The position numbers and the translations under genes were made by a program. Under the pieces are notes generated by a model. The model made no database searches and was not told where the DNA came from. It worked only from the letters and a program-made list of their open reading frames with translations. Shown piece by piece: positions 7,642-37,133 of a DNA stretch of 64,000 nt. Source of the stretch: an uncultured Ruficoccus sp. (GTDB lineage Bacteria; Verrucomicrobiota; Verrucomicrobiia; Opitutales; Cerasicoccaceae); NCBI GenBank assembly GCA_965140785.1, contig OZ223481.1:128001-192000 (forward strand), written 5' to 3'. Numbering within the stretch: the stretch's first letter is position 1; each line of letters begins with the position of its first letter.

Positions 7642-7648
7642 GATGTTT

Positions 7649-9220: not shown

Positions 9221-9260
9221 CGTCGGATTCCATTAAGCGGCCATAGGCGCATTCTCTGAC

Positions 9261-9827: not shown

Positions 9828-10788
9828 AATCGAGAATCTCCTGCGGGCTGACGGTGGCCGTTCCCAGCTTGCCGATGGCGATGCCGGCGGCCCGGTTGGC
9901 CAGGTGCGCGGCCTCCTCGATGGTGGCACCGGCGGCCATAGCCAGAGTGAGGGTGGCGATGACCGTGTCGCCCGCGCCGGAAACGTCGAAAACCTCCCGC
10001 GCCACAGTCGGGATCCGGTGGGCGACCTTACCCTCGTCGCAGACCAGCATGCCGTCCGCTCCGAGCGTGACGACCAGGTGGTGCGGGGCGTAATGCTCGG
10101 CGATGCCCCGGACGACCTCCTCCTCCGGGAACGGATCCTGCGGGTCGATGCTGATCCCGGCCATCTGGAGCGACTCGTCGCGGTTGGGCGTGATCAGGTC
10201 CATGCCCTTGACGTTGAGCTTGCGCTTGGGCTTGGGATCGACCGCGATCAGGCAGTCGGCGTCGCCGCGCAGCTCGATCAGGCGCGAAAGTAACTTCTCG
10301 GTCACCACACCCTTGGCGTAGTCCGAGACGATGACCGCCTTAGCCGCGGCCATCTTCTTCTCCAGGACCGCTAGGCACTCCGCGCTGTCAAAGGCGTAAG
10401 CGCTGCGGTGCGCCTCCCGGTCAATCCGGCAAAGCTGCTGCTGCCGGACCATGACGCGGGTCTTCTCGATCGTGGGGCGCTCGGGGGAGCGCCATTGTTG
10501 GGAAAAAACGATGCCGTTATCGGCCACCACCTTGGCGAGAATGTCGCCGGGCGTGTCCTTCCCCATCCAGCCAAACAGCTCCACCGGCGCGCCGAGCGCC
10601 GCCAAGTTCATGGCGACATTGGCCGCGCCGCCGGCGGTGTACGTGTCGCGCACCTGCGCCACGACCGGTACCGGCGCCTCGGGGGAAATTCGCGTGGCAT
10701 CGCCCCATAAGTAATGGTCGAGCATCAGATCGCCCACCACGAGGACCGGGGTTTCCTTAAAATGGTCTATAAGCTCCTGGCTGGTCAT
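9811..10788 (-). CDS. rfaE1: D-glycero-D-manno-heptose-7-phosphate kinase (RfaE domain I / HldA)
   Basis: GDLMLDHY..G...RISPEAPVPVV, GGAANVA, SDYAKG, TPN and DVSGAGDTV. Confidence 0.92.
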   Translation of the reverse strand: MTSQELIDHFKETPVLVVGDLMLDHYLWGDATRISPEAPVPVVAQVRDTYTAGGAANVAMNLAALGAPVELFGWMGKDTPGDILAKVVADNGIVFSQQWRSPERPTIEKTRVMVRQQQLCRIDREAHRSAYAFDSAECLAVLEKKMAAAKAVIVSDYAKGVVTEKLLSRLIELRGDADCLIAVDPKPKRKLNVKGMDLITPNRDESLQMAGISIDPQDPFPEEEVVRGIAEHYAPHHLVVTLGADGMLVCDEGKVAHRIPTVAREVFDVSGAGDTVIATLTLAMAAGATIEEAAHLANRAAGIAIGKLGTATVSPQEILDYEIPC

Positions 10789-10965
10789 AGGCGTCGATCG
10801 TCGCTTCCCCGGCTGGCCGGGCATGGGCATAAAACGGTCAGCATGGCCATCAAGGCCACAGATTCAAGTCTTTAGAGACGGCCAGATGGACACCAACGGT
10901 TCGTTATGGGTGTAGGCCCCCGCTTACGGAAGCAACGGAGACTAACGGTGCTTGGAACACGCATC

Positions 10966-11028
10966 GGGGTAGCCGCCTTTCTGGCGGCGCAGGGGCGCAG
11001 CCCCTCATTGCCAGCGGGTGCAACCCGC
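10966..11028. repeat. Triple-hairpin REP-like repeat, family A copy 1 (immediately 3' of ugd)
   Basis: Ungapped match to 56866-56928 (52/63 identical by hand count), with a compensatory stem change; starts with GTAG. Confidence 0.85.
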
Positions 11029-12396
11029 CTAGCGTTCGCCGCCCTGGCCGATGCCGTAGGCCTCGAAGCCGATTTCACGCAGCTGAGACAGTGCGAGGAT
11101 ATTGCGGCCGTCGAAGACGAAGGCGGGCTTGAGCATTTCCTGGTAAATCCGCCCCCAGTCCAGCCCCTTGAAGCTGTCCCACTCGGTCAGGATGGCCACG
11201 GCGTGCGCGCCACGGATGGCTGCGTACGGATCGGTGCAGATATCCACGCGCTCATCGTCCTCGCCTAGTCCCAAATCGCGCTGAATCGTGGCCGGATCGA
11301 CCTTGGGGTCGTAAATGGCGAGGTTCGCCTGCTCTTCCAAGAGGTCGCGGCAGACGCTGATGGCAGGCGATTCGCGGGTGTCGTTGGTGTCCTTCTTGAA
11401 GGCAAAGCCGAGGATGGCGATTTTCTTGCCCGAGACGGTATTGAACAGCGTGCTCACCATGCGGTCCACGAAGCGGCGCTTCTGGTGGTCGTTCATGGTT
11501 ACGACCTGCTCCCAGTACTTGGCCACTTCCGGCAGGCCGAAGTGTTCACACAGGTACACCAGGTTCAAAATATCCTTCTGGAAGCACGAGCCGCCGAAAC
11601 CGACCGAGCTGCGCAGGAATTTTGGGCCGATGCGCGAATCCCGCCCGATGGCGTGGGCGACCTCGTCCACGTTGGCGCCAGTGGCCTCGCAGAGGGCCGA
11701 AATGGCGTTGATGGAGGAAATGCGCTGGGCCAGAAAGGCGTTGGCGGTCAGCTTGGACAGCTCCGAGGACCAGACATTCGTCGTGAGAATGCGCTCGCGC
11801 GGCACCCAGCGGGCGTAAACCTCCACCAGCGCCTGCACGGCCTTGTCCCCCTCGGCGGACTCCTCACCGCCGATCAGCACACGGTCGGGCGCGGTCAGGT
11901 CCTCGACGGCGGTCCCTTCGGCCAGAAACTCGGGATTGGAGATGACCTGGAAGTTCAGGTCCTTGCCCGAACCGGCCAGGATACGCCGGATGGACTCGGC
12001 GGTGCGCACCGGCAGGGTCGATTTCTCCACCACAATCTTGTCCGACTCGGCCACCTCGGCGATGCGCCGGGCGCACAGCTCGATGTATTTCAGGTCGGCG
12101 GCGCGGCCCGCGCCCACCCCGTAGGTCTTGGTCGGCGTGTTGACCGACATGAAAATCATATCCGCCTCGCGGATAGCCTGATCCACCTCGGTGCTGAAAA
12201 ACAGGTTCCGCCCGCGGGCCTCCTTGACCACCTCGTCCAGGCCCGGCTCGAACACCGGCAGCTTGTCCGAGTTCCAGGCGTCGATACGCGCCTGGTTAAT
12301 GTCAACAACCGTGACCGGAATGTCCGGGCACTGCTTGGCAATCATGGCCATGGTGGGTCCGCCCACATAACCGGCTCCGATGCAGCAAATCTTCAT
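11029..12396 (-). CDS. ugd: UDP-glucose 6-dehydrogenase
   Basis: [34 protein letters not shown] and [14 protein letters not shown]. Confidence 0.96.
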
Positions 12397-12538
12397 AACA
12401 CTTGGGTTTTTCGCAATTGGGGGAAAAGTGCGATGCTCCCCATATCGCCCAAATTGACAATCCTTTAATCCGCCCGGACGGGTGACACCTCCGTTACGAT
12501 GCCCGTCGTCGATAAGTAGGCCCTCGTGTCGTGTTAGC

Positions 12539-12705
12539 CTAGGCCGCGTGGACAAAATACGGAACGAGCAACCGAAGGCGATTTTTGGTCCGAAATTCAG
12601 GCTTCGAAGCGAGGCAATTTGCCGAATTGTCGAGCTGAGGACATGGATTTGGGGCCTAAAAGCGCCAAAGGGGGCGACATGAGCTATTTTGTCCACGTGG
12701 CCTAG
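12539..12705. repeat. ~160-bp palindromic element (MITE-like or structured RNA), copy 1
   Basis: 21-nt inverted arms CTAGGCCGCGTGGACAAAATA / TATTTTGTCCACGTGGCCTAG (1 mismatch); interior colinear with 30762-30919. Confidence 0.85.
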
Positions 12706-12725
12706 TTCCTGATAAAATGCGAATG

Positions 12726-12810
12726 GCCACAAAAGGCACAAATCCGGAACTGGCCTCTCTAGATTCGCGCCTTATCCTGATTTTTTGTGAGTTTTGTGCC
12801 TTTTTGTGGC
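12726..12810. repeat. Inverted repeat GCCACAAAAGGCACAAA / TTTGTGCCTTTTTGTGGC
   Basis: Near-perfect inverted arms about 50 nt apart; the right side has three TTTTGTG units. Confidence 0.7.
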
Positions 12811-12884: not shown

Positions 12885-13718
12885 ATGCCACCCGTGCCGG
12901 ACACGCCCGACATCTCCGTCATCATCCTCACGCTCAACGAGGAGCGCGACCTGCCCGGCTGTCTGGAATCCCTGACCTGGTGCGACGATGTCCATGTGCT
13001 CGACTCGGGTAGCACTGACCGCACCGCGGAGCTGGCCACCGCCGCCGGGGCCACCGTCGCCGTCAACCCTTTCCAGTCCTTCGGCCAGCAGCGCAACTGG
13101 GCGCTCGACCACTGCCCGCTTAAACACGGCTGGGTGCTCTTTCTCGACGCCGACGAGCGCGTCACTCCGGCCATGCTGGCGGAACTGACCGAGAAGACCG
13201 CCCATGCTCCCGACACCATCGCCGGGTATTACTGCTGCTGGGCTCTCATGCTGGGTGAACGCTGGCTCAAGCGCGCCGACAATTTCCCCAAATGGCAATT
13301 CCGCCTGCTGCGGCGGGGCCGGGCGCGCTTCACGGACTTCGGCCACGGCCAGAAGGAGGACCAGGTGGAGGGCGAGATCGGCTATATCAAAGAGCCCTAC
13401 CTGCACTACGCTTTCGGCGGCGGCTGGGAGGTCTGGCAAAAGCGCCACCGCAAATACGCCAAACAGGAAGCCGCCGCCCGGCTGGCCTCCGATGTGCCGC
13501 TCTCCCGCATCTTTTCCCGCCACGCCTCGCAGCGTAACCCCGCCATCAAGCGACTCGTCAGCCGCCTGCCCGGCTGGCCGCTGTTCCGTTTTTCCTACAC
13601 CTATGTCCTGCGCGGCGGCTTCCTCGAAGGCCGCGAAGCCTGGGAGTATTGCCGCCGCTTGGCCTGGTACGAAGCCCTCATCCAACATGAGATGCGGCAA
13701 GTCAGGCACCATTCTTGA
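12885..13718 (+). CDS. Glycosyltransferase family 2
   Basis: ISVIILTLNEE, VLDSGSTDRT, QQRNWAL and WVLFLDADE. Confidence 0.92.
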   Translation: MPPVPDTPDISVIILTLNEERDLPGCLESLTWCDDVHVLDSGSTDRTAELATAAGATVAVNPFQSFGQQRNWALDHCPLKHGWVLFLDADERVTPAMLAELTEKTAHAPDTIAGYYCCWALMLGERWLKRADNFPKWQFRLLRRGRARFTDFGHGQKEDQVEGEIGYIKEPYLHYAFGGGWEVWQKRHRKYAKQEAAARLASDVPLSRIFSRHASQRNPAIKRLVSRLPGWPLFRFSYTYVLRGGFLEGREAWEYCRRLAWYEALIQHEMRQVRHHS

Positions 13719-13799
13719 ACCTGCTTTTTCCAACCCACCGCATGCAATCTGATAATTTTCTTTATTTCAGAAAAAAATGAATATATAGAAATATTAAAA

Positions 13800-14276
13800 A
13801 TGCCCAAAGAAGCGACCGCAATTCTGGAGGAGTGGGAAATCGAGCTGTTGAATATTTTTGTCGGCTTGTTCGACTCGTTTGGTGTGCCCAAATCGGTGGC
13901 GCAGATTTACGGCGTGCTCTTTTGCGCCGAACAACCGCTGACCCAGGAGGAGATTGGCCAGAAGCTCCAGATCAGCGCCGGATCGGCCTCGCAAGGGCTG
14001 CGTTTCCTGGTGGACATCGGAGCCGCGCACAAGCAGTCCACCCCCGGCCAGCGCGGCAGTCAGTTCACCCCCGAACGCTCCATGCGCCGGTTGCTGGGTT
14101 ATTTCATCGATGTAAAAATGCGTCCCCGTATGCGCACCGGCAAGGAACGCCTGGAAACCCTGCGCGACCGGCTGCCCGAAAACGATAAACTCGCTCAAAA
14201 GCGGTTGGAAACGCTTCTTCAGTGGCAGAGCAAGGCCAACAAGCTGCTGCCTGTCATTTCCAAGTTTCTCGGCTAA
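13800..14276 (+). CDS. GbsR/MarR-family transcriptional regulator
   Basis: GVPKSVAQIYGVLF...PLTQEEIGQKLQISAGSASQGLRFL winged HTH; AT-rich upstream region; heads the polysaccharide operon. Confidence 0.82.
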   Translation: MPKEATAILEEWEIELLNIFVGLFDSFGVPKSVAQIYGVLFCAEQPLTQEEIGQKLQISAGSASQGLRFLVDIGAAHKQSTPGQRGSQFTPERSMRRLLGYFIDVKMRPRMRTGKERLETLRDRLPENDKLAQKRLETLLQWQSKANKLLPVISKFLG

Positions 14277-14302
14277 GCCCCCAATTCTTTTCCGCTCATT
14301 TC

Positions 14303-15283
14303 ATGGACAAGTCCCAGCCTATCCTCGTCACCGGCGCCGCCGGATTCATCGGCAGCAAAACCGCCGAACTCCTGCTTGAAGCCGGACACACCGTCGTTGG
14401 CATCGACAATCTCAATGACTACTATGATGTGCGCGTCAAGCAGCACCGGCTCGACCAACTCAAGGGGCGGGAAGGCTTTACCTTTGAGCCGACCGATATC
14501 GAGGACCTGCCCGCCCTGGAGAAACTCTTTGCAGTACACCGCTTCGTCGCCGTCATCAACCTGGCAGCCCGCGCCGGGGTTCGGTACAGCATGGAGAACC
14601 CGCACGTCTACATGACGACCAACGCCCACGGCACCCTCAACCTGCTGGAGTGCATGAAGGACCACGGGGTGAAAAAATTCGTCCTGGCCTCGACCTCCTC
14701 ACTCTACGCGGGCCAGCCCATGCCCTTTGTCGAGACGCTACCGGTCAATACGCCGATCTCCCCCTACGCCGCCTCTAAAAAAGCCGCCGAAACCATGGCC
14801 TACACCTACCATCACCTCTATGGTATCGACGTGACCGTGCTTCGCTATTTCACGGTCTTCGGTCCGGCGGGCCGCCCGGACATGTCCATCCTGCGCTTTA
14901 TCAAGTGGATCGACGAAGGCACCCCGATCGAGCTTTTTGGTGACGGCTCCCAAAGCCGCGACTTCACCTACGTGGACGATATCGCCCGCGGCACCATCGC
15001 CGCGCTCAAGCCCCTCGGCTACGAGATTATTAACCTCGGCGGCGGCAACAACCCCATCTCGATCAACGCCATGATCGAATGTTTCGAGCAGCACCTGGGC
15101 AAAAAAGCCACCATCGACCACAAGCCCTTCCACAAGGCCGACATGAAGGAAACCTGGGCCAATATCGACAAAGCCAAATCCCTCCTCGGCTGGACCCCCA
15201 AAATCGACCCCTTCGAAGGCTTCCGCCGCAGCGTCGAGTGGCACCGTGAGAACCGCGAGTGGGTAAGCGATATTCAGCTATGA
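14303..15283 (+). CDS. NAD-dependent epimerase (UDP-glucuronate 4-epimerase-like)
   Basis: VTGAAGFIG, IDNLNDYYD, LAARAGVRYS, YAASKKA, GPAGRPDM and RDFTYVDD. Confidence 0.9.
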   Translation: MDKSQPILVTGAAGFIGSKTAELLLEAGHTVVGIDNLNDYYDVRVKQHRLDQLKGREGFTFEPTDIEDLPALEKLFAVHRFVAVINLAARAGVRYSMENPHVYMTTNAHGTLNLLECMKDHGVKKFVLASTSSLYAGQPMPFVETLPVNTPISPYAASKKAAETMAYTYHHLYGIDVTVLRYFTVFGPAGRPDMSILRFIKWIDEGTPIELFGDGSQSRDFTYVDDIARGTIAALKPLGYEIINLGGGNNPISINAMIECFEQHLGKKATIDHKPFHKADMKETWANIDKAKSLLGWTPKIDPFEGFRRSVEWHRENREWVSDIQL

Positions 15284-16086
15284 GTGAGCGAAGCAACATT
15301 TTCAGTCTGCCGAAGCGGGCTCTGAATCGCCTGACACGCGATAGCCAACTTCTATTCGCACGACTTGAACATAAAATCCGGCCTGAAAAGGCTTGCCACA
15401 TTGCCATCTGTGGCTTTCCCCGCGCCGGCACCTCCGTGCTCTTCAACATGCTCGCCTCGACCATGAAGGGTTTCAATAACCTGGGCCGGGAGACTGGCGC
15501 ACTTGCTGTGTTGAACCGTAGGGGTAACTGGATCACCAAGCAGCCCAACGATATATTTCATATCGGCAAAATCGCGGCCCAAAATTTCAGGGCTAAGAAA
15601 GTTCTGGTCATCGCCCTGTACCGGGATCCTAGCGACTCCATTACCTCCGTACACAGACTGCTGCCCGACGATTACTACATGGGCTACGATAAGAGAGGAT
15701 TCGACCAGTGCGGACTGGGGGAAATCTACAATGCCTACAAAAAGGCGATCGACCATCCCCCCGCCGGAGTCGACTTCCTCACTTTCTCTTACGAAGAACT
15801 CTGTGGAGCCCCGTCACGCCTGCAGGCGGAAATAACCCGTCGACTACAGGCCGAGTTCAGCGCCGACATGAAGGATTTCTATAAGTCTGGCGGTCAGATG
15901 GCCTATAAGTCCGGCGAAAGAGCCGAAAAGATCGCCGCCGGTCCCCTCGTCAAAGAACGACTCGGGAAATGGAAAAAGCCCGAGCGCATCCGCTCTCAGT
16001 TCACCCAGTTCCCCGAACTCTTCGCCATGGTAGAGGAGCTGGGCTACGAAAAAGACAGGGACTGGTTCGACACCTACCGTACCTGA
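15280..16086 (+). CDS. Sulfotransferase-family protein
   Basis: CGFPRAGTS (5'-PAPS-binding loop), YRDPSDSITS (3'-PB motif), SYEEL and GKWK; ATGA-coupled to the epimerase. Confidence 0.75.
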   Translation: MSERSNIFSLPKRALNRLTRDSQLLFARLEHKIRPEKACHIAICGFPRAGTSVLFNMLASTMKGFNNLGRETGALAVLNRRGNWITKQPNDIFHIGKIAAQNFRAKKVLVIALYRDPSDSITSVHRLLPDDYYMGYDKRGFDQCGLGEIYNAYKKAIDHPPAGVDFLTFSYEELCGAPSRLQAEITRRLQAEFSADMKDFYKSGGQMAYKSGERAEKIAAGPLVKERLGKWKKPERIRSQFTQFPELFAMVEELGYEKDRDWFDTYRT

Positions 16087-16123
16087 TCCTCTCCAGTATT
16101 TTTCGCCTAAAACTATACGACGT

Positions 16124-16525
16124 ATGTTACTTAAAAAAAATTCCCGCCGACTCAAGCGGTTGCTCTTCCCCCGGAAACGTAACGGTGAAGGCCCTCCCGC
16201 CTCCTACCGATCCGTCCAACTGACAACTGAAGGCATTAACGCCGGTGATTATAAAAAGTATCTCGGCGGGGGAGCCGGGCAGTGGGATCAGCGCGGGCAA
16301 TTTCAGTTGGACCTGCTGCGCTCCATAGGTCTCACCCCCACCTCGAAGCTGGCAGACATCGGCTGCGGGCCGCTGCGCGCCGGCCGTTTCTTCATCGAAT
16401 ACCTGGAAGCGGACGGTTACTTCGGCTTCGACTACAACGTCAGCTTCATTGAGGCAGGCAGGGCGATCATCGACGAGCAGGGACTGGTTAACAAGCGGCC
16501 AACCCGCTGCCCATCCTCCTTTTGA
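16124..16525 (+). pseudogene. Truncated class I SAM-dependent methyltransferase
   Basis: LADIGCGPLRAG (motif I) and YFGFDYN (motif II), then a stop after 133 aa with no room for the remaining fold before murA. Confidence 0.6.
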
Positions 16526-16567
16526 AAAAGAACAGCTGAGGCAGCGACACCTAAAAATCTCCGCACC

Positions 16568-17866
16568 ATGAAAAACAAAATCGATCTCTCTGTCATAGGC
16601 GGGCAAGTGCCCTCAGGGGCTGTACCAGTCAGTGGAGCCAAAAATGCGGCAACCCGTCTCATGGCGGCAGGGCTTTTGACCAATGAGCCCGTTATCCTGT
16701 CGAATTTTCCCACCGAGTTGGTAGACGTCGCCCAGAAGGCCCGTTTCATGCGCGCCATCGGCGCCGAATTGGACTTCGACCGCCAGCGCAGTGTACTCAC
16801 CGTCAACGCCCGGGGGACGCAGGACGCTCCCCCCGCAGACTTCGACTTTCCCATCCGTACCACGTACCTTCTGCCTGTCGGTCAATTGGTCCGCTATGGC
16901 CATGCACATATTCCTTACCCCGGTGGATGCAAGCTGGGTGAGCGTAAATACGACCTGCATCTGGAAGTGTGGCGCCAGCTCGGCTGCGATGTCGTCGAGC
17001 GTGAAGATCACATTGAAATAACCGCACGCTCGGGCTCACTGGTCGGCAACGAAATCAACTTCCCCATTACAACGGTCGGGGGCACCGAGAATGCCTTGCT
17101 GTGCGGAGCTGTGGCCCAGGGGACCACAGTCGTCCACAACGCCTATGTGACCCCGGAAGTTTATAACCTGATCGAGCTCCTGCGGCTGATGGGAGCCCAG
17201 ATCCAAATTCAGGGCAGCAGCATGATCACCATCGAAGGTGCCGGTGGGTGCCTGCACGGAGCGACCATTGACGTGATCCCCGACCGCATCGAAGCCCTCA
17301 CCTGGATTATCTACGCCGCCCTGTCCAAAGGCGATATCCTGATCGAGAATGTCCCCTTCGACCTGATGGAAATTCCCCTTCAGCACTTGCGGGCCGCAGG
17401 GCTCGATTACTTCAGCAACAGCCGTTCCGTTTACATCTCCCCGAACTGCTTCAGCACGCACTTCGTGCAGCCGTTCGAGCTGGCTTGCGGCACCCACCCG
17501 GGCATCATTTCGGACATGCAGCCGTTCTACGTGCTGCTGGCCATGTTTGGCGCCGGTAAGAGCCTGATCGTGGACTATCGCTACCCCAAGCGGGTCGCTT
17601 TCCTCGACGAGTTGCTCAAGTTCGCCCCGGGCTCGCTGGAGTGGAAGAGTGAAGATGCCGCCATGATCCGCGTCAACGGACCCGTCCCACTGCGCGGTGC
17701 ACAGGTCAAGTCCACCGACCTGCGCGGCAGCATGACGCTCGTCATGGCCGGACTTCTGGCCCAGGGCAAGAGCATCATCCACGACGTCGGGATGGCCCTG
17801 CGTGGCTACAATCTGATGGAACAGAAGCTCCGATCCCTCGGCATCGAATTCGAGATCTCGGAATAA
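16568..17866 (+). CDS. murA: UDP-GlcNAc 1-carboxyvinyltransferase homologue (MurA-like) within the polysaccharide cluster
   Basis: SGAKNA, PGGCKLGER (Cys115/Arg120 equivalents), TVGGTEN, PEV, IPDRIEA, SDMQ and TDLRG. Confidence 0.9.
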   Translation: MKNKIDLSVIGGQVPSGAVPVSGAKNAATRLMAAGLLTNEPVILSNFPTELVDVAQKARFMRAIGAELDFDRQRSVLTVNARGTQDAPPADFDFPIRTTYLLPVGQLVRYGHAHIPYPGGCKLGERKYDLHLEVWRQLGCDVVEREDHIEITARSGSLVGNEINFPITTVGGTENALLCGAVAQGTTVVHNAYVTPEVYNLIELLRLMGAQIQIQGSSMITIEGAGGCLHGATIDVIPDRIEALTWIIYAALSKGDILIENVPFDLMEIPLQHLRAAGLDYFSNSRSVYISPNCFSTHFVQPFELACGTHPGIISDMQPFYVLLAMFGAGKSLIVDYRYPKRVAFLDELLKFAPGSLEWKSEDAAMIRVNGPVPLRGAQVKSTDLRGSMTLVMAGLLAQGKSIIHDVGMALRGYNLMEQKLRSLGIEFEISE

Positions 17867-17876
17867 AAACGCGTCC

Positions 17877-18806
17877 ATGCTCGTTCTCCAACAGCAGTTT
17901 CCGAATGCGGTACGGTTTGACGAACCGCTTGCCCCCTACTCCTGGTGGCGTATCGGAGGCAAGGCCGACGCCCTGATCGAGATTCAAAGCGAGGAGCAAC
18001 TGGCCCATGTGCTCAAGAGCCTCCAATCACACAAGCTCGCCTGGTGCCTCATTGGACGAGGCACCAACCTGCTTTTTGACGATGCGGGCTTCCGGGGTTG
18101 CGTGCTGCGGCTGGGCAATGGTTTATCCGACATGAGCTTCGAGGACGACCGACTCACCGCCCAGGCCGGCTGCTGGACGCCCGGCGTGGCCTTGACCTGC
18201 GCCCGCCGCGGGCTTTCCGGAATCGAGCACACCATCGGCATTCCCGCCTCCTTCGGGGGTCTGATCTGCATGAATGGCGGCAGCCAGCGCAAAGGAATCG
18301 GCGACATCACCGAAAGCGTGACCACCCTTGATCCGGAGGGAAACCGCCACACCTACAGCCGAGAGGACTGCGCGTTTTCATACCGTCACAGCCGTTTTCA
18401 AGACAGCGGCGAGATCGTCGTCAGCGCAACCCTCCGGTTCCCAGCCCATCGCCCCTACACGGAACAACGTCCGGAACTGCTCTCCATCCTGCGCGAGCGC
18501 AATCGCAAATTCCCCCGCAAACTCCCAAGCTGCGGCTCGGTTTTCAAGAGCTCCCCGGAACTTTTTTCCGCCTACGGCCCTCCCGGAAAAATCATTGAGG
18601 ACATGGGCTTTAAGGGGAAAACCTGTGGAAACATACAAGTCTCTCCCCGCCATGCCAATTTCATCGTCAACAAGGGCGGCGGCTCTTCCGCTGACGTCCT
18701 GGCACTGGTCAATGAAATCCGTGCAAGCGTCAGGGACAAAACCGGGCTGACCATGCACCCGGAATTCCGCTACGTCCACCCGACGCACGGCATCATCGAA
18801 ATCTGA
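17877..18806 (+). CDS. murB: UDP-N-acetylenolpyruvoylglucosamine reductase homologue (MurB-like)
   Basis: WRIGGKAD, IGRGTNLL, GIPASFGG...MNGG, FSYRHSRF, SCGSVFK and HANFIVN. Confidence 0.92.
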   Translation: MLVLQQQFPNAVRFDEPLAPYSWWRIGGKADALIEIQSEEQLAHVLKSLQSHKLAWCLIGRGTNLLFDDAGFRGCVLRLGNGLSDMSFEDDRLTAQAGCWTPGVALTCARRGLSGIEHTIGIPASFGGLICMNGGSQRKGIGDITESVTTLDPEGNRHTYSREDCAFSYRHSRFQDSGEIVVSATLRFPAHRPYTEQRPELLSILRERNRKFPRKLPSCGSVFKSSPELFSAYGPPGKIIEDMGFKGKTCGNIQVSPRHANFIVNKGGGSSADVLALVNEIRASVRDKTGLTMHPEFRYVHPTHGIIEI

Positions 18807-18810
18807 TCGC

Positions 18811-20250
18811 ATGAAACGTCTGATTCACAGACTTTGGCACTCGCCGACCTTTACCTCATGGTCCAACCGGGCCGCGCAATCGGTTCGCCTGATCGTGCTG
18901 CTGCCCCTCATCCTGAAGGATTTCGACGACACTCAGGTGGCCTGCTGGTTTCTATTCAGCTCCATTCTCTTTTTCGGGCAAGTCATCAGCCAGCAAACCG
19001 CCCTGACGATGGCCCGCATGACAGCAATGGCCAACGGCGGCCTGAGTGACCTCTCCCCACACACCGGGAAAGCCCGCGACACAACCGGCCAGCCCAATTG
19101 GCCCCTGATCGAGCGCCTCTACGGCACACTGCAATCCCTCAATGCTATTCTCGCTGTCACCGGCCTGCTGCTGGCTATTGCCATGGGATATTATTCGCTT
19201 GAGCCCATGCTTAGCGATTACTCGGGAGCGAGCGACATCTGGTGCGCCTTCGCGATCCTCATGGGCGGGTATTTCATCAACGAGCTTTTTCGCAAGTTCG
19301 AAGTTACCCTCAAAGGGCTAAACCAGGTCGCCCTCACCAATCGCTGGAACGCCCTCTTCTCCGTACTCTCCTCGTGCAGTGGTGCTCTCGTCCTGCTGGC
19401 GGGCGGCTCCATCGTCGAGCTCGCCATCGCCATGCAGGCATTCATCCTGTTGAGTATCCTGCGCCAATGGGGGCTGCTCATGTTTCTGGTCCAGCCACGC
19501 TTCCGCGCCTTTAAAGTCTGGGCCTGGCATCAAGAAATTGTCAAATGGGCGTGGACTCCTTTATGGCGCGGCACGGTCCAGGCCCTGGCCAACCGCGGCG
19601 GCGCCCGGGTCGGAGCCGTTGTCCTCGCCCGCCATTGCGAGCCGGTCACCCTGGCCAGCATCCTTCTGGCCATACGCATCCTCGATGCGCTCGAAGACGT
19701 CAGCACCACCCCCATCGCCAGCCATTCACCGCGCTTTGGCCGGCTGTTGGGGGAAGGCAAAATCGACAAATTCCGCAAAGGCATGGATCGGGCGTTTCGC
19801 CTGTCATGCTCTGTCCATGTCACTGGGGTGGTCATGGTCGGATTTCTGGGCGGAATCGGGCTGCGGCTCCTTGGCTCCGATACAAAGTTCATCCCCATGA
19901 CCCTGTTCTTCAGCCTGGCAATCGCCCAGACACTCTTTTCCGTCGTTCGCAAGAGCCTGATGATATCAATGGTCGGCAACAACGTCGTCGTAGTCGAACG
20001 CTACTTGGCAGCTGCTCTGGCCAGTATCCTCCTCGCCTTCTGGCTCATCCCGCTGGACCCCTTCTGGGGCCTTCTTGCCAGCAGCTACCTCCCCGCCATC
20101 GTCATTGTAAACATCAAACCCCTCCAAATCGGCTGCCAGACGCTTCAGGAGCCCATATCGTTGTTCGTCAGGCGCACGATACTTGCCCCCCTGAGCGTGC
20201 TGCTGCTAGCCTCCGGGCTGGCGCTGGTGCTGAGTTATACGCGCCCTTGA
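18811..20250 (+). CDS. Polysaccharide flippase (Wzx/MATE-like)
   Basis: 479 aa with about 12 hydrophobic segments; located in a glycosyltransferase cluster. Confidence 0.72.
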   Translation: MKRLIHRLWHSPTFTSWSNRAAQSVRLIVLLPLILKDFDDTQVACWFLFSSILFFGQVISQQTALTMARMTAMANGGLSDLSPHTGKARDTTGQPNWPLIERLYGTLQSLNAILAVTGLLLAIAMGYYSLEPMLSDYSGASDIWCAFAILMGGYFINELFRKFEVTLKGLNQVALTNRWNALFSVLSSCSGALVLLAGGSIVELAIAMQAFILLSILRQWGLLMFLVQPRFRAFKVWAWHQEIVKWAWTPLWRGTVQALANRGGARVGAVVLARHCEPVTLASILLAIRILDALEDVSTTPIASHSPRFGRLLGEGKIDKFRKGMDRAFRLSCSVHVTGVVMVGFLGGIGLRLLGSDTKFIPMTLFFSLAIAQTLFSVVRKSLMISMVGNNVVVVERYLAAALASILLAFWLIPLDPFWGLLASSYLPAIVIVNIKPLQIGCQTLQEPISLFVRRTILAPLSVLLLASGLALVLSYTRP

Positions 20251-20270
20251 GTACAACCCGAATCGATTCC

Positions 20271-21440
20271 ATGAAAATCCTGTACCTGATCAGCTGCCTG
20301 CGAGGAATGAACTCCGGCGTCGGCGGACATAACTACTCGCTCATTACTATCGCAACGGCAATGGCCCGTTCGAACACAGTGAAAGTCGTACTCAACCACG
20401 ACATGGAATGCCCCGCCTTCAACACCTACCAGGGAACGCTCCTACACATCAGCCACCAGAGCCTGCGCGACGACATCAAGTCCCTGGTCGCGATCATCAG
20501 AGAAGAAAAACCGGACGCACTGCATTCCTTTGACCGAATATCCCATTGCATAGCAAAGGCAGCCAGTGCCCAAACCCAAACCCCGCTTGTCATCACCAAG
20601 CCCGGAGACATTCTCCCTCGCTATACCTATCCTCACGCCTACGACGTGACCGTGTTTACCCAGGCAGATGTCGATTTCTTCAAAAACCACCCATACTTCC
20701 GAAACGCACGCATTTCGAATATTCCAAACCGAACGACAAAACCGATCGTGAACGAAAAGCGTCTTTTAGCCCTCCAACCGTATGTCAAAGAGGGAGCGTT
20801 CAAGATCATGTTCATTTCGACCTTCAACAATAGAAAATTCAATACACACACAAAGTGTATTGAATTGATCAAACGCTTGAACCTGGAGGGTTTCAAAGCC
20901 CAAGGCATTTTTATCGGTAACATTAACGAACAAAGCGTCTATGATAAACTGCTCGCCAGCGCCGGAGAAAACTGCACCCTGCTTACCTCTGAGGAGTTCT
21001 TTGATAACGCTTCGGAATTTCTGGCCGGTGCGGATGCTGCGGTCACGATGGGGCGAAGCACTCAAGAGGCAGCCGCCTATGGAAAACCCATTTTATGCTG
21101 TGCCCATAACCTCGACATCCCATATCTCCTTAACGATTCGAATTTCGAGCACACAGCCTCTCATAACTTTACAAACCGTACTACCGTCGACATGAGCGGA
21201 TATGACGCCCTTGCCTCTATTTCTTCTCTCATTACCTCTCCGCAAGCCTACACCCAAGCCTGCGAATTCTCCAAACGCCAATTCGCCAAGTACTGGGATG
21301 TTGAAATGGCAGTTCCGAAATACTGTAATCTTTACGCTTCAGCACGCCCCGCGTGCAACCTCCCTCTGGAAAAATACCTACAGGCAACAGTTAAGCTACT
21401 TTACGATAAAGGGCGTAAGCTCTTCTCTAAATCTAGCTGA
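20271..21440 (+). CDS. GT-B fold glycosyltransferase
   Basis: MKILYLI...GVGGH N-terminus, KPDALHS and ADAAVTMGRSTQEAAAYGKP; AT-rich. The longer track ORF from 19545 is a spurious extension over wzx. Confidence 0.78.
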   Translation: MKILYLISCLRGMNSGVGGHNYSLITIATAMARSNTVKVVLNHDMECPAFNTYQGTLLHISHQSLRDDIKSLVAIIREEKPDALHSFDRISHCIAKAASAQTQTPLVITKPGDILPRYTYPHAYDVTVFTQADVDFFKNHPYFRNARISNIPNRTTKPIVNEKRLLALQPYVKEGAFKIMFISTFNNRKFNTHTKCIELIKRLNLEGFKAQGIFIGNINEQSVYDKLLASAGENCTLLTSEEFFDNASEFLAGADAAVTMGRSTQEAAAYGKPILCCAHNLDIPYLLNDSNFEHTASHNFTNRTTVDMSGYDALASISSLITSPQAYTQACEFSKRQFAKYWDVEMAVPKYCNLYASARPACNLPLEKYLQATVKLLYDKGRKLFSKSS

Positions 21441-21481
21441 CACAAACACATTCCTTCTCACTCCTTTCACCAAATACATCT

Positions 21482-22084
21482 ATGGCCAGCACTAATCTCA
21501 GGGAATCCATCAGAGCAGATTTGCTGCGCTACCGCAAAAACACCGGCTGGAAGGCTTTCGGGTATGCCTACATCGTCTACCCCGGCTTTCGTGTCACATT
21601 CTGGTATCGGCTTGTCCATTATTGCCATCGCTCTCCGAAATGGCGGATATTCTCCAAAATCGGCACACTCTGGCTACTGCACCAACAGCACCGCACTGGG
21701 ATAGAGCTCAGCCATCAAACAGAGATAGGCCCGGGCGTCTATATCCCCCATGCTGGAGCAATTGTGATTAACGGGAAGTGTAAGATCGGCAGCAATCTCT
21801 ACCTCTCCCACGATGTGCTGCTTGGCAAAGCCCATGCCGGCCCCCGGCAAGGGGTGCCCACCGTCGGGGATGACGTTTATCTTGGGCCGGGTGCACGGCT
21901 ACTGGGTAAACTCCATGTGGGAGACAATGCCGCCATCGGGGCAAATGCAGTCGTTTTAAACGACATTCCTTCCGACAGCTTCGCCGTGGGCGCTCCGGCC
22001 AAAGTCGTTAAAAATACCGGAGCCCGGGGGTTACTCGGAATCGCAGAAGAACAGGCCACAGTCCAAACACCGACCAAGGGCTAA
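21482..22084 (+). CDS. Hexapeptide-repeat O-acetyltransferase (CysE/WcaB-like)
   Basis: IGPGVYIPH, PTVGDDVYLGPGARLLG, IGANAVV and VGAPAK. Confidence 0.88.
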   Translation: MASTNLRESIRADLLRYRKNTGWKAFGYAYIVYPGFRVTFWYRLVHYCHRSPKWRIFSKIGTLWLLHQQHRTGIELSHQTEIGPGVYIPHAGAIVINGKCKIGSNLYLSHDVLLGKAHAGPRQGVPTVGDDVYLGPGARLLGKLHVGDNAAIGANAVVLNDIPSDSFAVGAPAKVVKNTGARGLLGIAEEQATVQTPTKG

Positions 22085-22129
22085 TTGACCCCTGCGGTCC
22101 TCATCGCAACTTCACCTTTCAGCCCATTC

Positions 22130-23506
22130 ATGAAATTAATCCCCTTTCCCTCGGAAAATAACGGAAGACTGCTACAGAAAGTGGCCTACTGGGTCCTGGT
22201 CGGCATGGCTATCGTCTCGCCATTAGGCCAGCTTACCCGATTCGGCCAATTCACGGGCGAAGGTGATGGCCAGGCCATGGGCGCTGTTACCATCCTGACC
22301 ATTTTGTACATCGGGCTTTCTATTATTAACGGCAGCATTATGGCTGCCATAAAAAAAACACCCCGCCGCCCTGCTCCTCTTCTGCTTCGCAGGATGGAGT
22401 TGCCTGGCAACCCTGGTGCAGGGGCTTCCGGTCATGTACGGGGTATACCCGGCCGCCCGCATGGTCAGTTATTATCTGGTCATGCTTGCCGTCTTCGGAA
22501 GCTTTTACTCCGAGCGTCAATTGCGATCGTCGCCCTGACGTTTTGTTTCTTCATGTCGATATGCTGTGTCATCAGTCTGGCCGACTATTTTGAATACATA
22601 AATCTAGAGCAGGTTAATGTCGTCGAGAATGCCTTCAAGACGGATGACATGAGAAACCTGAGAGTGGACAGCCTAACGGGGCCATTCTCCAGTCGGACAA
22701 TCTTCGCCAACCACATGGCCATAACCGTTACGATTGCAGTCTGGTATGTGCTGTTGAAAGGGAAGTCGATCATAGGCCTGAGTGCAGGCGTTGAGATGCT
22801 CGGCATTTTTGCGATCAGTGCCGTCATGTCCCAATCTCGAGGCCTGTATATGGCGATTCCGGTCGCTGTTTTATATATGGTGTATAAGCAGCGCAGCTTC
22901 TTGAGACTCATGCCAAAATTGCTCCTCGCTTCAGTCATATTCATAGCCGCAGCTACAGTTGTATTGTTAAATCATCCTGATTTGATGTTCGCGTTCGTGG
23001 AGCGCTTAAAAGGCCTCCTGCCATCGGAGTTCGCCTATAGCTCCTCAGGGCGATTCTCCATTTGGTCCAACCTCTTTAAGGAGCTTATGTCAAATCCGCA
23101 GGGGATTGGTTTTAAAGACGTCTATGTTGCAAACTGGGGGGTGATCGACACGCACAATGTCTATCTCAAAAACCTCAAACAGGCAGGCATCATCGGCATC
23201 GTCATGCTGACGATAGCATTCATCCCCTTGTTCAAGGTGTTATTTCGCCGAGAAATGGCTCCAACCGAGTCCGCCATCCAATCGGCTATCGTATGCTTGG
23301 GCATTTATGGACTGACGCATACCGTGGACTCCACCCTCTTTCTGTGGGTTTTCATTGGATTCGCACTGAGCCATTATTTCCGGCCGGTCAATCCCATGCA
23401 GATGCAGCCTAATCCACAGCCCCAGTTTCATCCCCACCCCCACTGGCCCGCCCCGCCCCATCGTCCACAACGGGCTCCCTTCCCCCCCACCGGACCTGCA
23501 CGGTAA
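22130..23506 (+). CDS. Wzy polymerase / O-antigen ligase family protein with a compensated frameshift segment
   Basis: Multi-TM protein; GPFSSRT, SQSRG, SSGRFSIW, GIG and THNVYLK..QAGIIG. The stretch 22359-22520 is hydrophobic only in the alternative frame. Confidence 0.75.
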   Translation: MKLIPFPSENNGRLLQKVAYWVLVGMAIVSPLGQLTRFGQFTGEGDGQAMGAVTILTILYIGLSIINGSIMAAIKKTPRRPAPLLLRRMELPGNPGAGASGHVRGIPGRPHGQLLSGHACRLRKLLLRASIAIVALTFCFFMSICCVISLADYFEYINLEQVNVVENAFKTDDMRNLRVDSLTGPFSSRTIFANHMAITVTIAVWYVLLKGKSIIGLSAGVEMLGIFAISAVMSQSRGLYMAIPVAVLYMVYKQRSFLRLMPKLLLASVIFIAAATVVLLNHPDLMFAFVERLKGLLPSEFAYSSSGRFSIWSNLFKELMSNPQGIGFKDVYVANWGVIDTHNVYLKNLKQAGIIGIVMLTIAFIPLFKVLFRREMAPTESAIQSAIVCLGIYGLTHTVDSTLFLWVFIGFALSHYFRPVNPMQMQPNPQPQFHPHPHWPAPPHRPQRAPFPPTGPAR

Positions 23507-23585
23507 AACTTCAATCATCATCCCACCCGGCTTTACGGCCCAGCCAGCTCCGGTGTGTCCCGTTTACAAACCAATATAAGCATCC

Positions 23586-24755
23586 ATGAAAAGACTGGCA
23601 AAGATTGTGGTAGTCGGTTTCGGCTCCATCGAAAAAGATAACGATGGCAACTGGCAGACGAAACAACCTATTGCCGAGTATATTAACGGCTTGGCCGAGG
23701 GAGCCGAAGAGGTCGTTTGGTTCATTAACCACAATCGGCTTAAAAACCAAAACCAACAGGCTACGATCAATTCTGACAAAATTCGCGTCAGGGCATATAA
23801 ATACAGCACCTGGAGCTGGTTCCGCATGATGCCTGGCGTGCTAAAAGAGAGCAAAGGTGCCGGTGTGATCCTGCACATGCCAACATCGACACACCTCTAT
23901 CCGTTATACAAGCTCATCAAAAGACGTTCGGTCGCGCTGGCAGTCTACATCGGGGACGACTATGAGGCGTACTGCAAAACCGGGACCGGCCTCACAGCCC
24001 TCAAGCGGCGGATGATACTGATGGCCCACCGCACATTGGTCAGTATCGCTGATCTGGTTGTGGCCAGAGGTAAGCACCTGGCATCGGTCGCGATGGAGCG
24101 CAACCGTAATGTCATTGAGACTGTGCCGCTCGCGCACATGCCGACTGAAGTCCAAACCAAGCCGCTTCCCACGGCGGGTGAACCTTTCAATATCCTCTGC
24201 GTAAGCAAGCTCGCCTGGTGCAAAGGCTTTAAAGAGTTCATCGACGCCTACGACCAGCTCGTACAGGAGGGACGGCACAAGCTTGGCAAACTGTACATCG
24301 TCGGAGACGACCTCGGAGGCAACAATATCGAGGGGGACGCCATCAGGGAATATGCCCGCACTAAAGCATGCTGTGATCACATCGTCTTTACCGGTTATTT
24401 GTACCTCGCGAGCGAACTGGAAAAGTACTGGCAGGCGTGCCCCCTGCTGGTGATGCCGACCTCCTCCCACAATGAAGGTGTCCCGCGCGTGATCGACGAA
24501 GCCCTAAGCCGCGGCCTGGGGATTGTCTCGACAACCATCGGTGGGGTGGGAGCCGAGTTCGCATCCAGCCCCGTCGTACTGGTGAAACCCGCCGATACCG
24601 GAGCGCTCCGCACCGGCATCGAACAGGTGCTCGATCACCCGGAAACGCTGGCCGACATTTCCGCCTATGCGAAAAGTCGCTTCGAGTTTTTCCAGCAGCA
24701 AGGCTCGCCCGGCAAGCAGCACTACCAAGCCCTTTCACAATGTATCAGAAAATAA
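23586..24755 (+). CDS. Glycosyltransferase family 4
   Basis: KG..EFIDA, YIVGD and EGVPRVIDEALSRGL. Confidence 0.85.
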   Translation: MKRLAKIVVVGFGSIEKDNDGNWQTKQPIAEYINGLAEGAEEVVWFINHNRLKNQNQQATINSDKIRVRAYKYSTWSWFRMMPGVLKESKGAGVILHMPTSTHLYPLYKLIKRRSVALAVYIGDDYEAYCKTGTGLTALKRRMILMAHRTLVSIADLVVARGKHLASVAMERNRNVIETVPLAHMPTEVQTKPLPTAGEPFNILCVSKLAWCKGFKEFIDAYDQLVQEGRHKLGKLYIVGDDLGGNNIEGDAIREYARTKACCDHIVFTGYLYLASELEKYWQACPLLVMPTSSHNEGVPRVIDEALSRGLGIVSTTIGGVGAEFASSPVVLVKPADTGALRTGIEQVLDHPETLADISAYAKSRFEFFQQQGSPGKQHYQALSQCIRK

Positions 24756-24863
24756 ACTTCACCTATTTACCAAGGAGGGGAGACAACCCCCAGGCCATCG
24801 ACTTCTAAACGAACTGTCGAGGCTCTATCCTGCCTCTCGCAGACCCCACGAAGCCACAATCTA

Positions 24864-25658
24864 ATGAAGACTGTCCAGAAATTGATCCAACATCCGGCAT
24901 GGACAGCCAAGAAGCTTTATCTCCATGGTCGATCCTTTTTGAACCTGAACAAAGATGACATCATACTGGCCGTTTTCCCGAAAACGGGCAGTACCTGGGT
25001 TCGGTTCTTCCTCTTCAATCTACTCTCGAGCGTCGAACAGCGCCAGGGCGAGATCAGCATCGACGAGATGAACCGTTTGATGCCCGAGATGGGGCACCCC
25101 TCCTTGTTTCGCGACTGGCCCTTTCGCTCGTGTCCACGCATCGTCAAAAACCACCATGCGGCCAATTTTATGACGCGCGGTCATCGTGTGATACTGATCC
25201 TGCGCGACCCCCGCGACGTCGTCGTGTCTTATTACCACTATGTCAATGGCGGCAAAAATGCTCCCGCTCAGGCCCAGACAATCAAGGACATCATCTACGA
25301 TCCGGAAAAAGGATTCGAAGGCTTTTTCAGGCAGTACTATTCCTGGCCGGAACAAGACCGTTTCTTACTGCGGTACGAAGACCTCAAAGCCGACCCTTTT
25401 GCCGAGTTCAGTCGCCTGGTGCATCACCTGAATATTCCGGCCAGCGAGGGGCAAATCCGGCAAGCTATCGCCAGTGCGGATTTTTCAGCCATGCGCAAAG
25501 CTCAGCAGCAAAGTAAATCCATGCGGGAGAGCTTCTCCGAGGGTTTCAATTTTGTCCGGTCCGGCGGCAGCGGTGAATGGAAAAACCTTTTCGAGGCCAA
25601 GGACATCGCCTATTGGGAGTCACTGAAAAATAAATACAATTTCAAGCTATATCCATGA
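24864..25658 (+). CDS. Sulfotransferase (Sulfotransfer_1 / cytosolic SULT-like)
   Basis: DDIILAVFPKTGSTW, RDPRDVVVSYYHY, RYEDLK and FVRSGGSGEWKN. Confidence 0.9.
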   Translation: MKTVQKLIQHPAWTAKKLYLHGRSFLNLNKDDIILAVFPKTGSTWVRFFLFNLLSSVEQRQGEISIDEMNRLMPEMGHPSLFRDWPFRSCPRIVKNHHAANFMTRGHRVILILRDPRDVVVSYYHYVNGGKNAPAQAQTIKDIIYDPEKGFEGFFRQYYSWPEQDRFLLRYEDLKADPFAEFSRLVHHLNIPASEGQIRQAIASADFSAMRKAQQQSKSMRESFSEGFNFVRSGGSGEWKNLFEAKDIAYWESLKNKYNFKLYP

Positions 25659-25754
25659 TGCCACCCCTCCTCCCCCGTCAACGACAAGGCATCGATAACC
25701 CGTGCTTCCTTTAAGGCAGACAACCATCCCACCAACCCAGTCAGCACATCAGCC

Positions 25755-26894: not shown

Positions 26895-27088
26895 GCGGCG
26901 TTAAAAATGAAAAATGTATCCAAATTTTAATGACTGCCAGACTTTCACCTGGAGAAATACCGGCAAGAACACTGAAACGTAACATGTGGAGCCGCTTTTA
27001 GCTTTTCAGTCATCCGCCCCCAGCTACTATCAACGCCCGAATCATTTCCTAATTGCTGTCCGAGAGGGTCAGCCCGTCAGAGATCACA

Positions 27089-37061: not shown

Positions 37062-37133
37062 GCCTAGAGCATGAATATTAATCCGCTTTACGCAAGCATC
37101 CGGCCAGAGATATAGTGCCAACTCCATCAACGA

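Follow-up and report, generated by a model that had tools for sequence, protein, structure and literature searches.

Why does a surface-polysaccharide gene cluster carry its own pair of genes resembling murA and murB, whose products belong to peptidoglycan synthesis? The question is raised by a stretch of 64,000 nucleotides (nt) from an uncultured Ruficoccus sp. of the Verrucomicrobiota (assembly GCA_965140785.1, contig OZ223481.1, positions 128,001 to 192,000), here called the window, in which a MurA-like and a MurB-like gene stand directly before a flippase-like gene and a glycosyltransferase (GT) gene. The two proteins are most likely dedicated, horizontally mobile enzymes of a surface-polysaccharide pathway and not cell-wall isozymes. 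The original prediction, made from the DNA letters and open reading frames (ORFs) of the window, had proposed that these paralogues supply uridine diphosphate (UDP)-N-acetylmuramic acid (UDP-MurNAc) or another carboxyethyl-sugar nucleotide to the polymer, and this proposal is supported by the paralogy, the separate clade, the pairing and the polysaccharide context of the two genes. The four central genes are the following.

16568-17866, + strand: MurA-like enolpyruvyl (1-carboxyvinyl) transferase, 432 amino acids (ORF list, PF00275, NF006873)
17877-18806, + strand: MurB-like reductase of the enolpyruvyl group, dependent on flavin adenine dinucleotide (FAD), 309 amino acids (PF01565 and PF02873, NF010480)
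18811-20250, + strand: Wzx-like flippase, a polytopic membrane protein (NF041503 WZX_like 93 bits, cut-off 300; no Pfam match)
20271-21440, + strand: GT-B glycosyltransferase of a family here called GT4x (weak PF13439 match)

The MurB-like gene starts 10 nt past the MurA-like stop, and the four genes are spaced 4-20 nt apart. The adjacent murA and murB followed by a flippase and an AT-rich GT, as first described, thus correspond to exact ORFs, with the Wzx-like gene beginning at 18811 and GT4x showing a GC content of 0.493. The MurA-like protein is a full-length two-domain protein of the EPSP_synthase/MurA type (PF00275 over residues 16-421, E 2e-46). It scores 338.1 bits against NF006873 (cut-off 297, residues 7-429) and 332.9 bits against the murA equivalog model TIGR01072, below the cut-off of 392.7; its top matches among solved structures are all MurA, at about 212 bits. 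The MurB-like protein combines the domains FAD_binding_4 (PF01565) and MurB_C (PF02873) and passes both NF010480 (272.6 bits, cut-off 259) and TIGR00179 (171.7 bits, cut-off 144.5). Its motifs SYRHS (R170), CGSVFK (S221) and PEFRY (E296) align with the solved type II MurBs 3TX1 and 4PYT, and we take R170, S221 and E296 to be the Arg/Ser/Glu catalytic triad of MurB. A pseudogene reading was rejected, both frames being intact with every catalytic residue present, as was a chance pair of ORFs (E-values 1e-99 and 1e-81).

Further details of the original prediction were also recovered. The equivalents of the MurA residues Lys22, Cys115, Arg120 and Asp305 are retained as K25, C121, R126 and D316, and the motifs said to diverge around them, PGGCKLGERKYDLH from residue 118 and HPGIISDMQ from residue 310, were both found. 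The window was said to hold no murC to murG, ddl or fts genes; tblastn with 12 proteins of the division and cell wall (dcw) cluster of the same genome (ftsI, murE, murF, mraY, murD, ftsW, murG, murC-murB, ddl, ftsQ, ftsA and ftsZ) matched only the MurB-like gene.

Housekeeping copies, which the same prediction had advised looking for, are present elsewhere in the genome. Its own murA lies on contig C12 (537 bits, above the TIGR01072 cut-off), and its own murB is the C-terminal half of a 725-amino acid MurC-MurB fusion on contig C48, between murG and ddl. The dcw cluster of C48 is complete, with ftsI, murE, murF, mraY, murD, a LysM protein, ftsW, murG, murC-murB, ddl, ftsQ, ftsA and ftsZ. The fusion is a single frame within this cluster (G000:C48:278834-281011), and the LysM-repeat protein between murD and ftsW has 376 amino acids. 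The window MurA-like protein is 32% identical to the genome's MurA, and the window MurB-like protein shares 33% identity with the MurB part of the fusion. Given these values and the existence of the housekeeping genes, the window pair is not a case of sole murA and murB copies grouping with housekeeping orthologues, and the MurB-like protein is not the cell's peptidoglycan-pathway copy. The five other module-carrying genomes checked (the module being the MurA-like/MurB-like pair) all have a housekeeping MurA at 411-598 bits, over the TIGR01072 cut-off, together with a MurA-like copy at 299-321 bits, under it; two MurB genes were likewise found in each of the five.

Relatives of the MurA-like protein were collected with two peptide patterns from one genome per species in 185,579 species. 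The scan yielded 183 stretches as candidates; the confirmed relatives number 108, a lower bound because the count hangs on those two patterns. Altogether 80 loci were kept, with MurA-like proteins 49-71% identical to that of the window; they are the base of all locus counts below, and 81 denotes these loci plus the window. They are distributed over eight phyla, namely Verrucomicrobiota, Cyanobacteriota, Pseudomonadota, Bacteroidota, Campylobacterota, Actinomycetota, Sumerlaeota and Planctomycetota, and the module is present in cultured Cerasicoccus maritimus, Vibrio furnissii and several Halomonas, Alteromonas, Microbacterium and Mucilaginibacter species. At least 120 MurA-like relatives were retrieved from a set of 5.8 billion proteins; among the matches listed, identities ranged from 54 to 70%, the named sources were Verrucomicrobiota, Cyanobacteria, Planctomycetota and Proteobacteria, and every name reads 'UDP-N-acetylglucosamine 1-carboxyvinyltransferase'. 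At the level of 50%-identity representatives, the clade amounts to roughly one representative (489 bits); below it come intermediates from 405 to about 240 bits and then, at about 190-240 bits, the ordinary MurAs. Cluster listings for 10 of the intermediate MurA-like representatives yielded a single name and no gene context.

In a 97-row MurA tree, a 35-row clade comprised the window protein together with 32 locus proteins and two representatives (support 97 in the Shimodaira-Hasegawa-like approximate likelihood ratio test), with the housekeeping MurAs of five module-carrying genomes in the other half. Two wrongly extracted long-branch ORFs in that tree (L073_AL and a Microbacterium housekeeping MurA) were removed from a 63-row tree and from the residue comparison. 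In the 63-row tree a branch supported at 99/97 separates all 24 clade rows from the rest, and the housekeeping MurAs of genomes G000, G001, G002, G003 and G005 stand opposite the clade. The phylogeny that had been suggested as a check therefore sets the window MurA-like protein apart from housekeeping MurA. The two are not orthologous: the protein belongs to a separate clade and scores below the equivalog cut-off. Branching inside the clade crosses phyla, with Cyanobacteria among Verrucomicrobiota, and Luteimonas and Euryhalocaulis among Actinomycetota (97-row tree). The clade is rare: a sample of 200 further genomes of the window's phylum contained no member at E<=1e-90.

A MurB-like gene was detected by tblastn in 71 of the 80 loci and is directly adjacent to the MurA-like gene in 64. 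It lies directly downstream in 58 loci, directly upstream in six, one gene away in four and elsewhere in the locus in three; positions in L039 and L072, where the genes overlap slightly, were taken from tblastn coordinates. In a 74-row tree, the MurB partners come from at least three lineages: a main partner clade of 51 rows that includes the window gene (support 100), a second clade of five rows from Cerasicoccus and cyanobacteria (support 98), and a third clade of 13 rows from Bacteroidota and Sumerlaeota (support 99). The cluster of Cerasicoccus maritimus (L007) is syntenic with the window; its MurA-like protein is 70% identical, the short-chain dehydrogenase/reductase (SDR) 68%, a small ORF 65% and the sulfotransferase 35%, and Wzx and GT4x genes follow. 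The MurB-like gene in the same slot (L007:11342-12184) belongs to the second class, as against the first class in the window, and the two proteins share 34% identity. The reductase has been swapped in place between close relatives while the flanking transferase is still orthologous, as expected from selection on the two-step reaction, that is, on the pairing itself.

Neighbour families were obtained by clustering 1,296 flanking ORFs and scanning the cluster representatives with Pfam, and were counted over the 80 loci plus the window. The recurrent families comprise GT2 (46 loci), GT4 (26), nucleotide-sugar dehydrogenases (25), a Wzx-type family (24, plus further Wzx-type families), SDR epimerases (23), the GT4x family (19), Wzc (17), Wzy (11), WecG (11), AT3-SGNH acyltransferases (10) and ATP-binding cassette (ABC) exporters (9), and sulfotransferases are likewise recurrent. 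At least one recurrent GT, Wzx, Wzy, Wzc, ABC or WecG gene is held by 76 of the 80 loci, the exceptions being three short loci (2-3 kb) and L048. A dcw homologue other than MurB was found in none of the 80 (E<=1e-10). The neighbourhood analysis asked for by the original prediction thus shows the pair recurring in polysaccharide clusters of eight phyla.

The active site was compared through HMMER alignments to the Aquifex and Haemophilus MurA structures, using E. coli numbering. Table 1 of PMC13750019 lists 11 polar contacts of UDP-N-acetylglucosamine (UDP-GlcNAc) in PDB 1UAE: R120, D305, N23, R91, D123, L124, K160, S162, V163, G164 and I/V327. Nine of these listed contacts are retained in the window protein, S162 to T counted, although this count cannot tell which sugar binds. 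The identical ones are R120 (R126 in the window protein), D305 (D316), N23 (N26), R91 (R97), D123 (D129), L124 (L130), V163 (V170) and G164 (G171). S162 is replaced by T169, a threonine as in the Aquifex enzyme, K160 by I167, a position at which Aquifex also has no lysine, and I327 by R338, which is invariant in the clade. Other retained residues are K22 (K25), C115 (C121), R331 (R342), D369 (D384), R371 (R386) and R397 (R412). Residues K22, N23, R91, C115, R120, D305, R331, D369, R371 and R397 are invariant across 35 clade rows and 47 housekeeping-type rows. At 17 positions a residue is conserved in at least 95% of the clade and present in at most 5% of the other rows; these include T29 and R30 after N26, T99 and Y100 after R97, I314 before D316, and Y337. 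In addition, the clade invariably has S315 and Y339 at positions where T and F are usual, and the stretch D336-Y337-R338-Y339 is specific to the clade. As the catalytic and contact residues are retained, the MurA-like protein should bind phosphoenolpyruvate (PEP) and a UDP-sugar in the customary pose, and should be sensitive to fosfomycin. R30 and R338 are new arginines beside contact positions and could suit a substrate with an additional anionic group.

We put at about 0.75 the probability that the two enzymes together produce a UDP-activated lactyl-ether sugar destined for the glycan of their cluster, with GT4x as the candidate transferase and assembly of the Wzx/Wzy type. The MurA-like enzyme would move the enolpyruvyl group from PEP onto a hydroxyl of a UDP-activated sugar, and the MurB-like flavoenzyme would use NAD(P)H to reduce the resulting vinyl ether to a lactyl (1-carboxyethyl) ether. 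GT4x (20271-21440) would then add the UDP-lactyl-sugar to an undecaprenyl-linked repeat unit, which Wzx would flip and Wzy polymerise. The outcome would be a strongly anionic glycan that is sulfated, acetylated and ketal-pyruvylated as well; its strong acidity is suggested by two sulfotransferases, a ketal pyruvyltransferase and a uronic-acid gene. What we infer here is the chemistry, the identity of the sugar, where and in which configuration the ether is attached, and what the GT does.

Several observations weigh against this reading. Nine of the 80 loci have no MurB-like gene within reach, and as a contig end lies near the MurA-like gene in L009 and L077, about seven truly lack a MurB-like neighbour. 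In such loci the ether may be kept as an enolpyruvyl group, or the housekeeping MurB may serve. Housekeeping MurBs interleave with the partner MurB clades in the 74-row tree and, since the MurB-like protein also passes curated MurB cut-offs, sequence alone does not set it apart. The housekeeping MurA group of the 63-row tree is one side of a branch with just 74/33 support. With the UDP-GlcNAc contacts retained, the enzymes could be producing nothing other than UDP-MurNAc, of which the cell has a supply already. The identity of Wzx comes from a weak hidden Markov model score, 93 bits against a cut-off of 300. Finally, precursor genes near the module are mixed, with a UDP-glucose dehydrogenase in some loci, a TviB-type UDP-GlcNAc dehydrogenase in others and none in most, and give no clue to the sugar; the SDRs beside the module likewise gave no substrate assignment. 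As a separate observation, the MurA-like gene of L026, L030, L050, L059, L067, L073 and L079, with no MurB-like gene in reach, is followed by Wzx and/or GT genes.

The first of these points leads to the rival that survives best, although we consider it improbable. The enolpyruvyl intermediate might persist as a vinyl ether or undergo further conversion, as with enolpyruvyl uridine monophosphate (enolpyruvyl-UMP) in nikkomycin, and the MurB-like protein could act on another substrate. The window protein has a 123-bit match to NikO, a MurA relative of solved structure that uses another acceptor, and the roughly seven loci of 80 with a MurA-like gene and no MurB-like neighbour would fit such a route. 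However, MurA matches the window protein much better (about 212 bits) than NikO does, and the MurB-like gene is not only adjacent in 64 of the 80 loci but has been replaced by other MurB lineages instead of lost.

Gram-positive bacteria have a second MurA, and the window pair could analogously be redundant peptidoglycan isozymes that boost or regulate the supply of UDP-MurNAc and lie in a glycan cluster by chance. Both proteins retain all catalytic residues, the MurB-like protein exceeds curated MurB cut-offs, and nine of the 11 tabulated UDP-GlcNAc contacts are kept, all as expected of isozymes. Set against this, dcw genes occur in none of the 80 loci and polysaccharide genes in 76, the clade is separate from housekeeping MurA, and its distribution is patchy (absent at E<=1e-90 from the 200 other genomes of the phylum) and crosses phyla against the species tree. 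Such a patchy, cross-phylum, polysaccharide-linked distribution is the pattern of an accessory glycan cassette, and we regard redundant isozymes as very unlikely.

Equally hard to sustain is a partnership of the reductase with the CsaB-type pyruvyltransferase (27053-28261) on a lipid-linked or polymeric glycan, the MurA-like protein being unrelated to it: an arrangement of this sort, pyruvyltransferase plus reductase, has been suggested for E. coli O124, whose wfeP gene, required for glucolactilic acid, is termed a pyruvyltransferase in the supplement of PMC7685785, and a PS_pyruv_trans gene is present in the window, but the MurB-like gene lies 10 nt from the MurA-like gene and 8 kb from the pyruvyltransferase, PS_pyruv_trans is absent from the recurrent neighbour families of the 80 loci, and MurA-like/MurB-like adjacency is the rule.

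If the pair makes a lactyl-ether sugar, the sugar itself can be narrowed down only in part. UDP-GlcNAc, giving UDP-MurNAc or an isomer, is the conservative guess on account of the conserved contact residues, and is plausible at somewhat short of even odds. Another UDP-sugar, such as UDP-glucuronic acid (UDP-GlcA), UDP-N-acetylglucosaminuronic acid (UDP-GlcNAcA) or UDP-glucose (UDP-Glc), comes close to an even chance. A different sugar or position is favoured by the strong conservation under which this distinct clade is held, by the clade-specific changes beside the pocket, and by the little gain that a second UDP-MurNAc enzyme set would bring to a cell already making UDP-MurNAc. The acid 3-O-lactyl-glucuronic ('nosturonic') acid has been reported from cyanobacteria and marine Alteromonas. 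More speculatively, and in our view rather unlikely as a whole, the clade may be a general and as yet unassigned enolpyruvyl transferase for surface-polysaccharide lactyl ethers in at least eight phyla, acting on a sugar other than UDP-GlcNAc, most attractively a UDP-uronic acid to give 3-O-lactyl-glucuronic acid, with R30 and R338, neighbours of contact positions for the sugar and the uridine, binding the extra carboxylate and GT2 and GT4x as alternative transferases.

The candidate transferase GT4x has an AlphaFold model of high quality score (predicted local distance difference test 90.5) with a GT-B fold, closest to the retaining GT4 enzymes BshA, MshA and HepE (template-modelling score about 0.65). 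Its GC content of 0.493 compares with 0.590 for the genome. The family stands beside the module in 18 of the 80 loci and in the window, its members being 18-30% identical to the window protein, and was found in none of the 200 other phylum genomes (E<=1e-20), which also lack the module. The gene right after the pair, or after an intervening Wzx gene, usually belongs to the GT2 family or to GT4x. At a distance of 1-5.5 kb downstream on the same strand, the 81 loci show the GT2 family in 34 cases, GT4x in 17 and both in two, which fits two alternative transferases for one donor. The suggestion that the GT at 20271 is a candidate muramyl transferase stands as far as a GT-B family recurs beside the module, while the term 'muramyl' is too specific. 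The GT4x frame is open for 631 amino acids (19545-21440), its upstream part overlapping the Wzx gene; 20271 is the likely start since relatives align from residue 1 of the 389-amino acid form.

Around the pair, a co-oriented block of 16.5 kb (12885-29418, + strand) has the content of a Wzx/Wzy-type cluster with sulfo-, acetyl- and ketal-pyruvyl-transferases. Besides the four central genes it contains the following features, which unless noted otherwise were identified with Pfam and NCBIfam; a run of genes on the other strand precedes it.

5885-12741, - strand: run of the lipopolysaccharide-core type, with SIS+CBS (KdsD/KpsF-like), KdsA-like, Wzy_C/ligase-like, SIS_2, PfkB kinase and UDP-glucose dehydrogenase-type genes
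7649-9220, - strand: second Wzy_C/ligase-type gene, 523 amino acids
11029-12741, - strand: nucleotide-sugar 6-dehydrogenase of the UDP-glucose dehydrogenase type (PF03721, PF00984, PF03720; TIGR03026 351 bits; best match TuaD-type)
12885-13718, + strand: GT2 glycosyltransferase
13800-14276, + strand: small regulator-like ORF
14222-15283, + strand: SDR sugar epimerase/dehydratase, 68% identical to the Cerasicoccus gene
15259-16086, + strand: sulfotransferase
16124-16525, + strand: small ORF of 133 amino acids directly upstream of the MurA-like gene, without Pfam or NCBIfam match
21482-22084, + strand: hexapeptide O-acetyltransferase
22085-23506, + strand: Wzy (Wzy_C)
23586-24755, + strand: GT4 glycosyltransferase
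24864-25658, + strand: second sulfotransferase
25755-26894, + strand: GT4 glycosyltransferase
27053-28261, + strand: CsaB-type ketal pyruvyltransferase (PS_pyruv_trans)
28258-29418, + strand: GT4 glycosyltransferase

The Wzx/Wzy assignment is based on Wzy_C, five GT genes and modification enzymes in one orientation, with Wzx supported by its position and by a related gene in L006. The Wzx-like protein has several hydrophobic segments and is 45% identical to the product of the same-position gene in that locus, and a Wzx-type gene follows the pair in many loci. The small ORF at 16124-16525 is 65% identical over 108 amino acids to the ORF at the same position in Cerasicoccus maritimus (L007:9325-9648); no counterpart was found in the other 79 loci. 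The dehydrogenase gene at 11029-12741 is divergent from the cluster. The location of the cluster beside 3-deoxy-D-manno-octulosonic acid (Kdo), heptose and ligase-like genes suggests that the glycan is of the O-antigen type. No Bac_transf initiating transferase, Wza or Wzc was detected among the window ORFs scanned (425-38350). No operon boundary emerged when 12-31 kb was searched for promoters and terminators, the terminators occurring at chance frequency (21, with 21.4 expected).

GC content is 0.51-0.56 over 20000-27000, compared with 0.59 for the genome, and is lowest in GT4x (0.493), Wzy and the second sulfotransferase; low GC here is typical of the horizontally exchanged, variable part of a glycan cluster. 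Two sulfotransferases, a CsaB-type pyruvyltransferase and a hexapeptide acetyltransferase occur together in this one cluster. Judged from this gene content, the glycan is predicted to carry sulfate, pyruvate ketal and acetate, and probably lactate in addition.

Compared with known systems, the pair is closest to housekeeping MurA (EC 2.5.1.7) and MurB (EC 1.3.1.98), with which it shares the two folds, the reaction order, the catalytic residues and much of the UDP-sugar pocket. It differs from them in forming a separate MurA clade that is never beside dcw genes, almost always lies in polysaccharide clusters and is patchy across phyla, and in having T29-R30, I314-S315 and D336-Y337-R338-Y339 next to ligand-contact positions. 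NikO (PDB 4FQD) is also a MurA-family enzyme, recruited to secondary metabolism with an acceptor other than GlcNAc (enolpyruvyl-UMP of nikkomycin, as given in PMC6801904). It is a much more distant match to the window protein (123 bits, whereas MurAs reach about 212 bits) and has neither a MurB partner nor a polysaccharide context. Ketal pyruvyltransferases of the PS_pyruv_trans family (CsaB, WcaK), one of which is in the cluster, likewise place a PEP-derived three-carbon acid on glycan sugars; their fold is unrelated, their product is a cyclic ketal and not an ether, and their acceptors are described as lipid-linked or polymeric in the review PMC6801904.

Lactyl ethers of glucose, N-acetylglucosamine, rhamnose and galactofuranose are well documented in O-antigens and capsules, according to PMC7685785, PMC10609480 and PMC3060912. 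The nearest functional parallel is found in E. coli O124, Shigella dysenteriae 3 and S. boydii 17, whose O-antigen clusters, as described in PMC7685785, contain genes credited with the UDP-activated lactyl-ether sugar UDP-GlcpLA. Synthesis of UDP-GlcpLA in E. coli O124/O164 is attributed there to wfeP, and the supplement places wfeP, as a pyruvyltransferase gene, between wfeO and wfeQ. Unlike the MurA-like gene, wfeP is termed a pyruvyltransferase in that source, and its product may be either a MurA-type or a WcaK-type enzyme. When the Vibrio furnissii module (L070:6320-8488) was compared by distant blastn with 20,395 E. coli records, there was no match.

The original prediction had also proposed an undescribed pathway. 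This holds for the clade within the literature searched, and does not extend to lactyl-ether genes as such, those of E. coli O124 being already in print. MurA/MurB paralogues forming a polysaccharide cassette were not described in the full-text literature searched, although most subscription journals are outside its scope and a prior description is possible. Our results support known chemistry in a distinct, conserved clade that has a different cellular role and is misnamed by annotation.

Among the glycans with lactyl (1-carboxyethyl) ethers are O-antigens, capsules and exopolysaccharides of marine or cyanobacterial origin. The biosynthesis of these ethers outside peptidoglycan has barely been assigned to genes; the cassette is a concrete and widely distributed candidate for it. 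Annotation under the cell-wall names MurA and MurB inflates counts of peptidoglycan genes and hides a pathway of glycan modification. As the cysteine targeted by fosfomycin is retained in the clade, the drug could also affect the decoration of surface glycans in bacteria that carry the module. Elsewhere in the window, genes unrelated to the cluster include one for an 806-amino acid DUF4838 protein (3425-5845, - strand) and one for a PolX-type DNA polymerase with HHH, pol beta thumb and PHP domains (35304-37130, - strand).

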